From: a virus
Strand: one strand, 5' to 3'
Length of the DNA stretch: 64,000 nt
IMG/VR virus record: IMGVR_UViG_3300033233_000004
Coordinates: 96,001 to 160,000 of that record
Under the pieces are notes generated by a model. It was not told the DNA's origin. It was given only the letters and a program-made list of their open reading frames with translations, and searched no databases. Positions 10,698-42,461 of this stretch are shown here, in pieces. A program made the translations under genes and the position numbers. Numbering within the stretch: position 1 is the stretch's first letter; each line of letters begins with the position of its first letter.

Positions 10698-11152
10698 CCA
10701 GCACTCTTACTACCATTTCCACCGAATCCAACAACTCTTAGAAGTATATCAGTTTTCGCTGGTGGCGCAATTGTAACAAAGGGGGTAGTTCTTACCACTG
10801 TTCCGCCAGTTCCTGCATTTATATCACTAAGTGTTCCAGTGGATTCCAGACTTTGCCATGTAGAACCAGAATCTAATGAATATTGAACTCGTAATTTTGC
10901 AGTAGAAAACCCATCAATATCTTGAATACTACATATACGAAATTGTTCAAAATAACGTAGGTTAACCATTCTTCTGGCATATACTCCATTTTTGAATTCT
11001 GTAAGAGCAACGGGAATAGTCCAAGTAGTATCATACGCCACAGTTTGAGATACAATAGTCAAATCAAAAAAGGTATGATTCGGCAATATATCAGAGGATT
11101 GTAATAATTGCGGTTGTCCATCAACTACAACTACTGGTCTTCTAACAGTCAT
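10664..11152 (-). CDS. Virion decoration/fibre-like protein
   Basis: N-terminus RRPVVVVDGQPQLLQSSDIL shared with the neighbouring gene. Confidence 0.45.
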   Translation of the reverse strand: MTVRRPVVVVDGQPQLLQSSDILPNHTFFDLTIVSQTVAYDTTWTIPVALTEFKNGVYARRMVNLRYFEQFRICSIQDIDGFSTAKLRVQYSLDSGSTWQSLESTGTLSDINAGTGGTVVRTTPFVTIAPPAKTDILLRVVGFGGNGSKSAGWTWLSIQFQI

Positions 11153-11153
11153 T

Positions 11154-11618
11154 TTAGAGTTTTATTGGTTGTCTTTGAGTAATTTCAAAAGACGTTGCAG
11201 ACAATGCTTGACCAACTTCGACCACGTATCCGGTAACTGGTGGAGTATTGGATAGTCGTCCCTCTATTGTATCCAAATAATATACAGATTGAGGAACAAG
11301 GAATGTAGAACCAATGACTGCCGTCCAATCACTCTGTTCCAACTCACCATCAGTAATTATACTTCCACTGGCACCTGATAGAATGCTCGTATCATACACC
11401 AAACCAAATACACGCTGTTTTCCAGCAGTGGCGGCATTGGCAAGGTTTATACTACCACCAGAAGCTACGTAAACTGGTTGTCCTTTTACAATAGAACCTG
11501 TATTAGCATTGCCAGCTAATACCAAATCTAACTGTATGCCAAAAGCATCCAGAGTATCGCCAAATTGTAATTGTTCAATTTGACCGTTGTTTAAGACAAG
11601 GGGTTTTCGAGATGACAT
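11154..11618 (-). CDS. Capsid decoration/fibre protein (DUF2190-like)
   Basis: KGQPVYV...LANA...VFGLV...YYLD...GRLSNTPP...VGQALSAT. Confidence 0.55.
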   Translation of the reverse strand: MSSRKPLVLNNGQIEQLQFGDTLDAFGIQLDLVLAGNANTGSIVKGQPVYVASGGSINLANAATAGKQRVFGLVYDTSILSGASGSIITDGELEQSDWTAVIGSTFLVPQSVYYLDTIEGRLSNTPPVTGYVVEVGQALSATSFEITQRQPIKL

Positions 11619-31966: not shown

Positions 31967-32025
31967 GCAACCTTATTTGATTGTTTTCTCTGAAAATCAA
32001 CCATTAAAGGTTGATTATAACTTTG

Positions 32026-32099
32026 TACCCATGGCGAGACTCGAACTCGCATCGACGTAGGGTTTAAGCCTACCGAATATGCCATTCTTCTACATGGGC
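32026..32099 (-). tRNA. tRNA-Leu(TAA), short variable loop
   Basis: 74-nt cloverleaf, loop CTTAAAC. Confidence 0.8.
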
Positions 32100-32101
32100 A
32101 T

Positions 32102-32130
32102 AATGTACACAAACGAAAATCAAAAGTCAA
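32102..32130 (-). promoter_or_regulatory. Sigma70-type early promoter
   Basis: TTGACT-17-TACATT. Confidence 0.6.
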
Positions 32131-32182
32131 GAGAAATCTAAATAAAAATAGAGTTGCTGGCAGGATTCGATACCTGCCATTG

Positions 32183-32737
32183 TTATACGCCATGCGTTGC
32201 GGCAACTTCCAGCTGCACATCGCTGGCAATCTCGTTTCCCCATGTATCCCACCCGTCAACTCTTCGACGGGCGAACAATTCAACGCGAGGATTCAATCCT
32301 TTCGTCGCTCGTTCAATTAACTGGCGAAATTCTTCTGGCTTCTCACTGTGTCGCAATGCTTTCAACTGGAGAAAATTCGGTTCTTGACATCTAAAAGCCT
32401 TCACACGCCCACGTACACCAACAAGGATATGCTCTGTTTGTCCTCTGAACCAATAGCCCATTCCGAGACTCATTATCTTGCGCCACGTCAGCATTGTCTT
32501 GAAGGAATATCCCCACGCCCTGAGAACTTGAAACCCTTCTTCCATCATCGGAACGGTTACCCAAAGAAAAAGCACACTGTTGTTATCAGCAATTTCGCGC
32601 ACGTTCAATCGACAAATTTCATCAACAGTCATTGTCTTGTATTGGTATTCTGCCCCGCTTTGCATAGACTCACCCGTTTTCTTGTTTCGATATGTCCACG
32701 GGGGGTCTGCATATATTATCTGATATCGTTTTTCCAT
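32183..32737 (-). CDS. MT-A70 family N6-adenine methyltransferase
   Basis: IYADPPW, LFLWVT, GMGYWFRGQTEH, HSEKP, ELFAR, GWDTWGNE. Confidence 0.9.
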   Translation of the reverse strand: MEKRYQIIYADPPWTYRNKKTGESMQSGAEYQYKTMTVDEICRLNVREIADNNSVLFLWVTVPMMEEGFQVLRAWGYSFKTMLTWRKIMSLGMGYWFRGQTEHILVGVRGRVKAFRCQEPNFLQLKALRHSEKPEEFRQLIERATKGLNPRVELFARRRVDGWDTWGNEIASDVQLEVAATHGV

Positions 32738-32861
32738 TGCTCAAATCGTTGCCGCAAAACACGCACGGCGTATAACAAGCGGGTTAACGCAAGCCCTACC
32801 CAAATTGGTTTTGAAAAGCATCGTCTGGCAAGCCCTTCGCCTGCTCCAACCCGACTGGACG

Positions 32862-33125
32862 TTAGCCGCCATTTCGCTTACGCACATTTTCTTTACGCCA
32901 AAGTGCAAGCCCTGATCGTCCAGCAAGTTTGTCAACAACCGTAAATGCACCACGTATAAATTGACGACGTTCTTCTTCTGTTGCAAACCCGTGATGTTTT
33001 GGGAAATCGGCTGGTATAGCCCAGCAGTTAAGTTTAGTCCACCACCGTGCCAACCGAGCGCGCAAACGGCGGCTCACAATCGTGCTTACGTCGCTCACTC
33101 TTTTAGATTTCTTCATAGAATTCAC
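32862..33125 (-). CDS. Hypothetical cassette-borne protein
   Basis: Stop codon lies in the GGCTAAC boundary. Confidence 0.5.
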   Translation of the reverse strand: MNSMKKSKRVSDVSTIVSRRLRARLARWWTKLNCWAIPADFPKHHGFATEEERRQFIRGAFTVVDKLAGRSGLALWRKENVRKRNGG

Positions 33126-33186
33126 TCAACACCTTTCTCATTCATAAAAAGCGTGGAGTTCGGTGTGTGCATTGTTGGCGCACACG

Positions 33187-33477
33187 TTAACTGCAAGGTG
33201 GCGGTGGAAGTGGCATCCAATGCGTTATATTGAACGCAAACTCCGTTCCTTCCCATTCGCAATTATGGCTTATTCCTTCTCTTGTTTTCATTGTCATAAA
33301 TGATGATAAGTAACCAACCCTAATATCTTTCCTTTCCTCTCCCGTATGCGTTTTCCAATCATCAAACAATAGAACTTCTTTTCCTAATTCAGGTAGTTTG
33401 TCAACCACCGCTACCCAGTTAACACCACCTTGCTGCAATGCGGGTTTCTTCTTACTTTTTGAGTTTGTAGTTTTCAT
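33187..33477 (-). CDS. DUF551-like protein
   Basis: WVAVVDKLPE...ITHWMPLPPPP. Confidence 0.75.
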   Translation of the reverse strand: MKTTNSKSKKKPALQQGGVNWVAVVDKLPELGKEVLLFDDWKTHTGEERKDIRVGYLSSFMTMKTREGISHNCEWEGTEFAFNITHWMPLPPPPCS

Positions 33478-33691
33478 ATTATTTTGTTTTTATAGTTAAG
33501 TTTTCCACTTCACAGTCAATCCTGCCAAGTTGTATCATCAGGCCGTCTGTCTTTGATTTCGTGCCAAGCAATTAGTCGAATGAAATCAATCTGTGTAAAA
33601 GCGTCCATTGCTCACTCCTTTGATGTTTGAATTGTGTTCGCAACGTCGGACTTACGCCGTCACGCTGGTTGCCATGCGGTGCATTTTATAG

Positions 33692-33925: not shown

Positions 33926-34090
33926 TTTACCCCGCTCAAATTATTGTACGCACCGACAACTAACAATGCAAAAGTACGGCACTGGCCGAAAGGAACTTAT
34001 CTCCTCGATTTACCACGCCCCGATAAGTGGATGACGTAGACAAGCATAAGGCACAATCTGCTTTAGCGTCTATCTTCCGCCACAGCACCT

Positions 34091-35147: not shown

Positions 35148-35657
35148 TTAGACCTTGATACATAGATAACTGAACCCGCTACCTTTTCTGTACATCTTGG
35201 TGATTTGACAACCACCAAAGACTCCATGCACCCATTTCATATATACATGTAAACGTTTGTTTGCTTGCCATGTGCCTGTTTTCCCGATACAAGGTCTTCC
35301 ACTACGATTTCCTTCATATACAGAAATGTAGATGCAACCACCAACCTTCACATGTCGTCTTGCCAACCAAAGCACTTCTGTAATACCAGTAGATGTCTCG
35401 ATGACATTTAGAACATTACACAAAGTAACAGTGTCATAGTCATATCGTTCGAGCATTCTGGCATTGTGGTCGGATGTTCTATTGTAGGGGTCATAGATGA
35501 AGTTCCCTACACTTCGTTCCGCCAAATATTTAGTTGCTTCCTCGAACTTTCCACCACCAATATCCAGATTGCTGGTATGTGGATACCAGTTTACTAACTT
35601 AAACACTGCTGGTATCTGCTTGATACAGGTTCGTGCTGAACGATGTATTGTATCCAT
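35148..35657 (-). CDS. Small class I SAM-dependent methyltransferase
   Basis: NLDIGGG, YDPYN, YDTVTLCNVLNVI. Confidence 0.8.
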   Translation of the reverse strand: MDTIHRSARTCIKQIPAVFKLVNWYPHTSNLDIGGGKFEEATKYLAERSVGNFIYDPYNRTSDHNARMLERYDYDTVTLCNVLNVIETSTGITEVLWLARRHVKVGGCIYISVYEGNRSGRPCIGKTGTWQANKRLHVYMKWVHGVFGGCQITKMYRKGSGFSYLCIKV

Positions 35658-36577: not shown

Positions 36578-37189
36578 ATGACAAATTCCAAACAACGACA
36601 AGTCGAAGGACAACACATTACTGCGGCAATGTCTCATCAACGTTATCTAATACGAATAGAAACATACAAGCAAACTCCAAACTTATGTGCACAGTGTTAT
36701 GCACCGCTTGCTTATAGCCACCGAAAAAACAAATTCTGTTCTCATTCTTGTGCAGCTATTGTTACTAACAGGCTTTTTCCAAAAAGACAACAAACAAATG
36801 GAACAAGAGAATATCGAAGACAAGGAAAATGGCGTAAACAATTTAGAAAAAAAAGGCTCCGTGACCTGACATTACTGGAATATTTAGAACGAACACACGT
36901 TAAACCTCTTCCAGCGATGATAAAGAAATCTGCTCTTCGTTCTTTTGCTCGACATTGGAATCAAGACATTCTCAAAAAACCGTGTGCAAATTGTGGATAT
37001 GATAAACACGTTCAATTAGCACATATAAAAGCAATTCGAGATTTTCCATTAACAGCAACTTTGGGAGAAATTAACTCTCGAACAAACGTCATACAACTTT
37101 GCCCAAACTGTCATTGGGAATTCGATAATACCTTCCTTAAAATCTCTGTAGGGACAGAAGGATTTGAACCTTCAATTTCTCGATTATGA
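36578..37189 (+). CDS. HNH endonuclease
   Basis: CAQC...FCSHSC; CANCGY...AHIK...NVIQLCPNCHWEFD. Confidence 0.85.
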   Translation: MTNSKQRQVEGQHITAAMSHQRYLIRIETYKQTPNLCAQCYAPLAYSHRKNKFCSHSCAAIVTNRLFPKRQQTNGTREYRRQGKWRKQFRKKRLRDLTLLEYLERTHVKPLPAMIKKSALRSFARHWNQDILKKPCANCGYDKHVQLAHIKAIRDFPLTATLGEINSRTNVIQLCPNCHWEFDNTFLKISVGTEGFEPSISRL

Positions 37190-37221
37190 GCCGAGCGGAT
37201 TAGCCATTCTCCTATATCCCT
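37149..37221 (-). tRNA. tRNA with CAT anticodon (Ile2 or elongator Met)
   Basis: Cloverleaf, loop CTCATAA. Confidence 0.82.
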
Positions 37222-37298
37222 AAAAAGTACGTACCCCCAAAGAGGACTCGAACTTGGATGTTACTCGCTACTGCCGACCTCAACCCCACTATAATTTT

Positions 37299-37763
37299 TT
37301 ACGGAACAGGTCGTAATGATGTTATATTTCTATTACCATCTACTCCAATTCTGAATGTTGCACCAACTTCGACAAACTGAGCAAGCAACTCACTGTATGG
37401 ACTAATTACAGTAATGCCAAATTCTTTATTACCTTGCTCGTTACCAATCTGGTCATTCCATTGATTAACTAATGAAAGTACTGGCTCCTGAAATTGATTT
37501 ACCGGAACTCCTCGTAAAACATTGGTGTTGGATTGAACCACGCCAACAAAACCTTCAGTACTATACAAAAATGCTTGTCCATTATCCCAAGCAGAAAGTG
37601 TTACAACACCTACTTTCTCCAAAGACTGTACAGTAGTGGAGATTGGATTAATGTTTGAATCTGATGCTTGTGTACAGCCAGAACAATACAAACAAACTGC
37701 TGTAAACAAAAGCAACAAACTGGCTGAAAATATCTTAACTGCTTTAGCCGTTTGACTCTTCAT
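37299..37763 (-). CDS. Putative lipoprotein
   Basis: Signal peptide ending CSGC; AAGGAG SD. Confidence 0.6.
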   Translation of the reverse strand: MKSQTAKAVKIFSASLLLLFTAVCLYCSGCTQASDSNINPISTTVQSLEKVGVVTLSAWDNGQAFLYSTEGFVGVVQSNTNVLRGVPVNQFQEPVLSLVNQWNDQIGNEQGNKEFGITVISPYSELLAQFVEVGATFRIGVDGNRNITSLRPVP

Positions 37764-40952: not shown

Positions 40953-41134
40953 ATTATCTCCTCTTTGGTAATCTTATTTCACTACGTCCATCATTAGGGT
41001 CGAAAGACTCGTATCCACGATACCTAAAGAATTGTTGTGACTTTTTATTCTTATCTAACACAACGTTATTCTTGACTATTCTAAAACCAGTTGGATATTG
41101 GTCAATAAGTTTTCGCTGTTGTTTATTATGCTTT

Positions 41135-41350
41135 TCATTGCTTAAAAATGTCATCTGAGGCTCCAACTAAAATCTCTCCATGGGCACCTTTTAAAAGAAT
41201 AACATTTACACCCTTTTCAAATAGGTTTCGTGCCACTTTATACTCATCGACATTAGTCAGAACCTGATTGTGTTTGTAACCAGAGTCTTTGATAGCTTTA
41301 ATTTCTCGATGAGAGGTATGCCATGCAAACACTGTTACTTTTTCAGCCAT
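41135..41350 (-). CDS. Hypothetical protein
   Basis: Packed small ORF. Confidence 0.55.
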   Translation of the reverse strand: MAEKVTVFAWHTSHREIKAIKDSGYKHNQVLTNVDEYKVARNLFEKGVNVILLKGAHGEILVGASDDIFKQ

Positions 41351-41352
41351 AT

Positions 41353-41583
41353 TTACCCTTTGTCAAAATGTTTGTATTTTTCGGTAAAGGATACAAATCT
41401 GACTTCTATATCTTGCAATGCATCTGAAACACAAGCGTAAGGGCCATACGTAGTAATCATATTACCATGAATCACCATAGTAGCATACCAACAACCATTT
41501 CCCTTGTCCCAATAGATACCACAACCATCTTGTTCAGTACCACAGGTAAAATGTCTTGTTCTTTTATCATATGTCCATACCAT
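41353..41583 (-). CDS. Hypothetical protein
   Basis: AGGAG SD. Confidence 0.6.
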   Translation of the reverse strand: MVWTYDKRTRHFTCGTEQDGCGIYWDKGNGCWYATMVIHGNMITTYGPYACVSDALQDIEVRFVSFTEKYKHFDKG

Positions 41584-42257: not shown

Positions 42258-42415
42258 GTTTCTTTCTTCCACATAATGGTAGATAATCTCACCAAATGGA
42301 ACGACAGTGACCTTTGACTTCATTTGAGAAGTTTGAGGAGTCTTTGGATGTCCAAAAAAAGCACTATAAATCCAAGCTCCAATTAACATTGATATAAGGT
42401 TAAGTCCCATGATGT

Positions 42416-42444
42416 AATGTACATAATCGTAAATCAAAAGTCAA
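42416..42444 (-). promoter_or_regulatory. Sigma70-type early promoter
   Basis: TTGACT-17-TACATT. Confidence 0.65.
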
Positions 42445-42461
42445 GGTAAATCTGAACTATT

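Follow-up and report, generated by a model that had tools for sequence, protein, structure and literature searches.

In a 64,000-nucleotide stretch of the phage record IMGVR_UViG_3300033233_000004 from IMG/VR (the window; genome bases 96001-160000), three consecutive small genes on the minus strand, here called A, B and C, lie inside an array of tRNA genes. The last of them, gene C, encodes an MT-A70 family DNA adenine methyltransferase and forms the loop of a 27-bp stem built from its own leader and stop-codon region. This enclosing helix is real, is exceptional for the genome, and dominates the predicted fold. It belongs to a recurrent class of helices that enclose related and unrelated genes in other phages. 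Our preferred reading, which we hold tentatively, is that the helix forms in the mRNA of a self-contained mobile gene and serves to clamp or process it. Positions refer to the window unless a genome or a locus (L number) is named, and the coordinates of the principal features are collected in Table 1.

The stem enclosing the MT-A70 gene

The C stem consists of 17 bp (one of them G·U), a 4-nt bulge and a further 10 bp, and thus provides the flanking helix of ~20 bp or more that we took as the mark of a stalk. The ends pair as GTTATACGCC... with ...GGCGTATAAC over 27 bp, extending a GTTA/TAAC core, and both the ribosome-binding site and the whole reading frame lie inside the loop. The only mismatch is of the G·U type on the sense strand. 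The 3' arm codes for a non-conserved C-terminal tail, and the arm sequences are unique in the genome. A minus-strand scan between the two arms found no terminator-like site.

The significance of the bracketing repeat was assessed by comparing the regions around start and stop for 210 crude genes of the complete genome, with a null in which the start of one gene was paired with the stop of another. Energies from duplexfold were too permissive as a statistic, and alignment and helix scores were used instead. Gene C ranks first of the 210 genes by alignment (score 38, p = 5e-5), and its G·U-aware helix score of 56 exceeds the null maximum of 45. Folding of the 731-nt region as RNA gives this stem in the minimum-energy structure as well as in the centroid (z = -2.9). 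The gene at 35148-35657, second in the ranking by energy, was set aside, as its pairing partner is a tRNA T arm.

Enclosing helices in other phages

A survey of 1,014 open reading frames (ORFs) from ~100 fetched phage loci was scored against a non-cognate null. Bracketing repeats with a score of at least 28 were found around 1.2% of the ORFs, compared to 0.17% in the null, and those with a score of at least 34 around 0.5%, compared to 0.005%, an enrichment of 7- to 100-fold. Among 77 phage MT-A70 genes, 12% lie above the 99th percentile of the null, with gene C of the window the strongest; those with an enclosing stem include a gene of the cultured Polaribacter phage Danklef_1. The 5' arm is usually located 20-55 nt upstream of the ATG and the 3' arm across the stop codon, and the ribosome-binding site is therefore within the loop. 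The mismatches are strand-asymmetric: helices scoring at least 28 contain 18 sense-type G·U mismatches and 2 of the antisense type (50 and 41, respectively, in the null), and a hand tally of the per-case table gave 14 and 1 for the compact helices.

The class extends to other genes. A DUF551 relative in L100 has its own private 25-nt repeat, with 24 of 25 positions paired, that reaches from codons 4-11 to across the stop codon. It is one of three consecutive genes (88 aa, 140 aa and DUF551; L100:121-1450), each with a private inverted repeat of 21-25 nt, and no TAAC-hairpin-GTTA site was found between them. Together with a helix in L054, these three lack both the TAAC/GTTA core and a hairpin site.

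The MT-A70 module of L062 recurs in L065 (87% identity, in wholly different flanks) and in L064 (79%). Across these three loci, four helix pairs differ at both of their positions, and the paired cells amount to 85%, a level reached by none of 500 shuffles; slid controls gave 25-45%. Because the helix is kept by compensatory changes, sense-strand pairing is under selection in this module class; the enrichment and the strand-asymmetric mismatches, taken together with these changes, indicate the same. A limited search of the literature did not turn up any published account of stems that enclose genes in phage messages.

Weaker repeats around genes A and B

The first-pass annotation of the window had assigned a private inverted repeat to each of the three genes. 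The arm sequences that it quoted for units A, B and C are all present on the minus strand at the positions assigned to them, and for C the claim is well founded, as this repeat is the best in the genome. The repeat of B (arms at 33060-33077 and 32861-32877) emerges only in the G·U-aware test, in which it ranks second in the genome (score 43, p ~0.003-0.004). As plain DNA identity it is not significant (under the 21-point level, p > 0.058), and the B stem is missing from the centroid RNA fold. The repeat of A consists of 8 bp and 10/11 bp and contains a bulge of 3 nt; its two arms (33405-33423 and 33186-33207) each lie mostly within coding sequence. It is borderline, as the DNA test gave p = 0.012 and the G·U-aware test p = 0.11-0.12, and its sole mismatch is an A·C on the sense strand. 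Thus, A and B are at best weak members of the enclosing-helix class.

These values invite the explanation that the repeats have no present function, with the C repeat a recent inverted duplication or the leftover of an insertion (for example, into an older hairpin loop) and those of A and B due to chance. Besides the near-chance scores of A and B, this would account for the 5' arm of B, which is the conserved coding motif IVSRRL and is also found at genome position 11135, in a 75-aa paralogue close to the gene for the terminase, as well as in L094/L095; in both cases the matching 3' arm is absent. It would also fit the closest MT-A70 proteins (78% amino acid identity and lower), whose genes have no repeat around them, and the C arms, which occur nowhere else in the genome. 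The enrichment over the null, the compensatory changes and the asymmetric mismatches all speak against such an explanation, which we consider improbable.

Gene B as a mobile module

Relatives of gene B with 90% amino acid identity are found on four metagenomic contigs. Homology with two of these, L092 and L093, extends from ~10 nt before the ATG to 6 nt past the TAAC, neither flanking spacer travels with the gene, and the other ~25 genes on the L092 and L093 contigs have no relative in this genome. As the homology is confined to 33127-32855, the flanks are unrelated and the neighbours lack relatives here, gene B is a discrete mobile module. In L092/L093, its 5' arm reads GTTAGCC, by which the G·A mismatch of the window is repaired.

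The edges of this module do not follow the expectation of the first-pass annotation that homology should break at G|TT/AAC boxes. The 5' edge (33127) is located 50 nt outside the proposed 5' box, the 3' edge (32855) falls inside the supposed attC site, and in the L094/L095 lineage of B the homology stops within the gene, at 32943.

Several further observations concern the surroundings of gene B. Its N-terminal motif KKSKR...IVSRRL (33060-33116) recurs with ~82% DNA identity over 55 nt at genome positions 10973-11200 (L002:1340-1567), in the 75-aa gene that adjoins the terminase gene, and at L094:62-247, in another small gene. Three kinds of DNA methyltransferase are encoded near gene B in different phages (window 32862-33125; L092:1619-2557; L094:1950-2633): MT-A70 directly downstream here, C5 four genes downstream in L092, and N6/N4 two genes downstream in L094. 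A tRNA-like T arm with a 3' acceptor strand (GGGGGTTCGACTCCCTC...) lies upstream of B at L092:195-250, for which ARAGORN made no call.

The B-C spacer and hairpin arrays of other phages

The spacer between genes B and C had been described as an imperfect palindrome within an integron-like array. It is the only place in the whole genome with an R''/L''/L'/R' arrangement of boxes at a gene end; the A-B spacer and the stretch after C contain no R' box. As single-stranded DNA, the spacer folds no better than its shuffles on either strand (z = +0.4 and +0.9). As RNA it folds with -36.7 kcal/mol, which is marginal (z = -1.8). A scan for a loose TAAC-hairpin-GTTA pattern gave 123 matches, compared to 139 in shuffles, and is informative for long stems only; a likeness of two junctions in GTGTTGAG is at chance level.

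Arrays of such sites with long stems occur in L053, L044, L062, L065 and Danklef_1. In L094, which carries a variant of B, several consecutive genes end in TAACGTNNAG and are followed by imperfect palindromes of 90-125 nt that end in CTTGTTA. Six sites that were folded (from L094, L103, L062 and L053) gave z = -1.9 to -5.8 as single-stranded DNA, a range of strong hairpins to which the B-C spacer, at z = +0.4, does not belong. Pairing of the gene ends that extends a GTTA/TAAC core is common to gene C, L062 and the Danklef_1 MT-A70 gene gp56 (L103:2424-3113; NC_062745 ~36950-37640), where an enclosing helix of ~40 bp is built on GTTACCTGTAG / CTACAGGTAAC.

Two side observations relate to these arrays. 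The conserved motif TTTTATATACATTGTT(A/G) is found upstream of both gp56 and gp57 of Danklef_1. At L094:2631-3190, a 127-aa gene lies between the two copies of a 34-nt direct repeat (TAACGTGGAGCGTAACCACGAAGCGGTTTTTGAC), the second of which opens a near-perfect palindrome of 125 nt (z = -5.6 as DNA); it looks as if the gene had been placed next to one half of a hairpin site or had been duplicated together with it.

Integron-like recombination, inversion and transposition as alternative readings

The first-pass annotation had suggested that the region might be an integron-like system of gene shuffling. Applied to the present data, this would make gene C a cassette of the kind with TAAC...GTTA hairpins, using the B-C hairpin as its site and stranded in this phage. 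Pairing across the gene would then form the base of a long hairpin, complete only in the excised circle, and the folded single strand would be the substrate of a tyrosine recombinase that either the host or a co-infecting phage supplies in trans. The B-C spacer and the ends of C share their box layout with the sites of L094, L062, L053 and Danklef_1, and the array sites of these other phages fold strongly as single-stranded DNA (z = -3.4 to -5.8). The L062/L065 module, in its unrelated flanks, has a right edge ~4 nt before the next GTTA. All three genes of the window have TAAC stops, as had been stated; only 17 of the 210 genes (8%) end so, and three consecutive cases have a chance of ~5e-4. 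The hexamer TAACGT is common to A, B and the L094 genes. About 1 kb past the Danklef_1 array, the gene for a tyrosine recombinase is broken: its reading frame (41006-41491) is interrupted by an in-frame TGA, and the annotation there is a 43-aa 'integrase'. Published attC clusters without an integrase (CALINs) are known from virulent phages, and a Polaribacter phage whose cassettes encode methyltransferases is among them (PMC9892861).

Against these points stands the lack of an enzyme. Searches of the complete genome at E <= 1 detected no tyrosine recombinase (PF00589), integron integrase (TIGR02249), serine recombinase (PF00239) or Y1 transposase, while the control genomes were positive in every search. 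The statement that the window holds no integrase is therefore valid for all 171,836 bp, and two complete array-bearing phages likewise contain no recombinase. Moreover, the one candidate site of the window, the sole one at a gene end genome-wide, is unstructured as DNA, gene B moves without either hairpin and with edges that are not at G|TT, and enclosing helices also exist where such sites are absent (L054, L100). Integron integrases act on the bottom strand of attC, whereas the mismatches of the enclosing helices favour folding of the top (sense) strand. Thus, what endures of the proposed gene shuffling is the acquisition of single-gene modules, the mobility of B and the recurrence of stems with GTTA/TAAC cores in phages; the absence of a recombinase, the DNA fold of the spacer, the module edges and the strand preference do not agree with it. 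We regard a stranded cassette, the main alternative to a role in RNA, as possible, though rather doubtful.

The same searches bear on two other explanations. An invertible segment, in which the repeats would let the methylase gene flip on and off, is suggested by inverted repeats of 20-30 bp around a few hundred bases, which are typical of such segments, and by the phase-variable methylases that are known. However, the genome contains no serine or tyrosine invertase (PF00239, PF00589), and each repeat is private, with arms unique in the genome, so that no single invertase could recognise all of them. Inversion also predicts identical arms and unbiased mismatches, the opposite of what is observed, and we consider it very unlikely. 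We hold an equally low opinion of the idea that the methylase gene is the cargo of a small non-autonomous transposon, with the repeats as its inverted termini. Imperfect repeats of ~30 bp, with a reading frame that ends inside one of them, do resemble the ends of insertion sequences. However, the element is present in a single copy without a target-site duplication, the searches for Y1 transposases and for tyrosine and serine recombinases (DDE transposases were not searched for) found none, and a strand-asymmetric wobble is unexpected for double-stranded ends bound by a protein. Inversion, transposon ends and a lack of function are all less likely than a role in RNA or a stranded cassette.

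A possible role in RNA

Several features lead us to favour an mRNA stem for gene C. The window has neither a convincing DNA hairpin site nor a recombinase, the ribosome-binding site lies in the loop, and sense-strand pairing is maintained; the better structure of the B-C spacer as RNA than as DNA was also counted for a role in RNA. In the proposed mechanism, the leader and the stop-codon region of C would pair on the sense strand, looping out the ribosome-binding site and the reading frame. The resulting helix would be a double-stranded stalk of the kind that RNase III cuts around 16S and 23S rRNA. Its cleavage could free the methylase message from the long transcript of the tRNA array, and the two ends of the cut message would stay clamped and hence shielded from exonucleases. 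Alternatively, the stalk might limit translation of the methylase message. Genes A and B would be weaker versions of the same layout. We infer that both arms lie on one transcript, that a nuclease cuts the helix, and that the helix alters stability or expression.

Several points weigh against this reading. The MT-A70 gene does not require the helix, as its closest relative (78% amino acid identity) is without one. The TAAC/GTTA cores are conserved, which points to a protein that recognises specific sequences in DNA; the Polaribacter-type arrays, as in Danklef_1, also have a conserved TATACATTGTT motif preceding consecutive genes, and the TAAC of Danklef_1 gp56 is not its stop codon. A folded sense strand of DNA would yield the same asymmetry, as G·T mismatches. 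In A, B and two of the L100 genes, the 5' arm is within the reading frame, and cleavage there would part the start codon from the remaining message. Finally, no RNase III gene was found in the phage genome.

In a broader view, to which we give slightly less credence than to the mRNA stem itself, private helices on the sense strand that enclose whole genes might be widespread among the mobile accessory genes of phages, such as those for methylases, DUF551 proteins and small orphans, as an architecture not yet described. Each helix would move with its gene and could be an RNA device that cuts out and clamps the message, could act as the folded site at which an integron-like system of mirror type recombines, or could do both. 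If it acts in RNA, the accessory genes of phages would come as expression units that insulate themselves and function in whichever transcript receives them, a principle re-invented by synthetic biology with ribozyme and nuclease insulators. If it acts in DNA, integron-like gene capture would extend to large virulent phages, with a different strand logic. In either case, pairing between leader and stop-codon region would be a simple signature for recently mobile phage genes, and the cultured phage Danklef_1 offers a tractable system for the question.

Genomic setting

The source is a complete IMG/VR phage genome of 171,836 bp with direct terminal repeats and 38% GC. The RNA genes of the window, namely 35 tRNA genes, a tmRNA and a weak match to RNase P RNA, are all on the minus strand, and the block is located inside the tRNA gene array. 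On that strand, the order is gene A, gene B, gene C, a T-arm-like hairpin, a promoter-like site and tRNA-Leu(UAA). The GC enrichment that had been claimed for the block is genuine (0.44-0.50 over 32000-33200, compared to the genome mean of 0.38).

Table 1. Coordinates of the principal features in the window
Feature	Position	Strand	Description
Gene A	33187..33477	-	DUF551 protein, 96 aa; Pfam PF04448
Gene B	32862..33125	-	Orphan basic protein, 87 aa (84 aa from ATG at 33116)
Mobile B module, extent	32855..33127	-	93.4% DNA identity to L092 and L093, flanks unrelated
B-C spacer	32779..32860	-	Imperfect palindrome, TAAC - 7 nt - CGGGTT ... AACCCG - 3 nt - GTTA; abuts 5' arm of C stem
C stem, 5' arm	32748..32778	-	TTGTTATACGCCGTGCG / TGTT bulge / TTGCGGCAAC; end 10 nt before ATG
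Gene C	32183..32737	-	MT-A70 family DNA adenine methyltransferase, 184 aa; Pfam PF05063 E = 1.4e-33; PHROG 359
C stem, 3' arm	32180..32206	-	GTTGCCGCAACGCATGGCGTATAACAA; last 7 codons, TAA stop and 3 further bases
T-arm-like hairpin	32159..32178	-	GGCAGG-TATCGAAT-CCTGCC; starts 1 nt after 3' arm of C stem
Promoter-like site	32102..32130	-	TTGACT, 17 nt, TACATT; serves tRNA-Leu(UAA) at 32025-32099; downstream block end

The MT-A70 gene is known in identical form on one other contig only. A near-identity search of a phage collection with 4 kb of the region returned a tRNA match only, searches of viral contigs with gene B, a 169-aa gene and an 84-aa gene returned no relatives, and phages related through the terminase (46-77% amino acid identity) have no DNA in common with the block region. 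The block is a run of small accessory genes of outside origin, inserted in the tRNA array, and the data support the view that its units are single-gene modules acquired from elsewhere.

A remnant of a tRNA T arm had been proposed at the end of the block. In the hairpin there, 19 of 20 bases do agree with the T arm of the tRNA-Pro(UGG) that the phage itself encodes, and the loop is longer by one base; no tRNA model scores it, and neither ARAGORN nor Rfam called a tRNA in the region. The stretch after tRNA-Val (34020-34090, minus strand) begins with GGTGCTG, and 6 of these 7 positions could pair with the CAGCAAC that follows the T-arm-like hairpin (32145-32182, minus strand). A split tRNA was considered, and 1,344 joins of this stretch with the hairpin gave no ARAGORN call. 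The promoter-like 42-mer at 32101-32143 (TTGACT ... TACATT) recurs with 86% identity at ~42415-42456, upstream of tRNA genes. The interval between genes D and A contains an ORF of 30 codons (33516-33608, minus strand) whose ribosome-binding site, AAGGAG, is strong; on the single other contig with this region, the ORF has been called as a gene as well.

Comparison with known systems

Like integron cassettes and CALINs, the block consists of single promoterless genes with a TAAC/GTTA-type core, stops in an R''-like box, an imperfect palindrome between genes, a methyltransferase as cargo and no integrase nearby. It differs in that the complementarity of C spans 27 bp across the gene, compared to ~7 bp, and in having one candidate site that is unstructured as DNA, module edges off G|TT and a preference for the top strand.

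In phages of the T4 type, genes are shuffled by promoter-stem-loop (PeSL) cassettes (PMC2839356, PMC4122927). Both there and here, accessory phage genes in hypervariable regions form single-gene modules bounded by structured motifs. PeSLs, however, are shared direct repeats that recombine by homology, whereas the arms described here are private, inverted and unique; of the boundaries of the block, only the promoter-like 42-mer downstream of C is repeated.

Stalks cut by RNase III enclose the 16S and 23S rRNA in bacterial rrn operons. As in these operons, sequences of a long, tRNA-rich RNA that flank a loop could pair here over at least 20 bp. Unlike in the rrn stalks, the loop of C would be a protein-coding message with a 3' arm that overlaps the stop, and cleavage is postulated by analogy. 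The closure of hok mRNA by fbi-tac is a case of 5'-3' pairing within one bacterial message. In icaR of Staphylococcus aureus, a 5'-3' mRNA duplex is a substrate of RNase III and controls translation (PMC3868564). With both messages gene C shares the pairing of the ends of one message over hundreds of bases. In icaR, however, the 3' untranslated region masks the ribosome-binding site, whereas the stem of C leaves this site free in the loop and covers the stop codon with its 3' arm.

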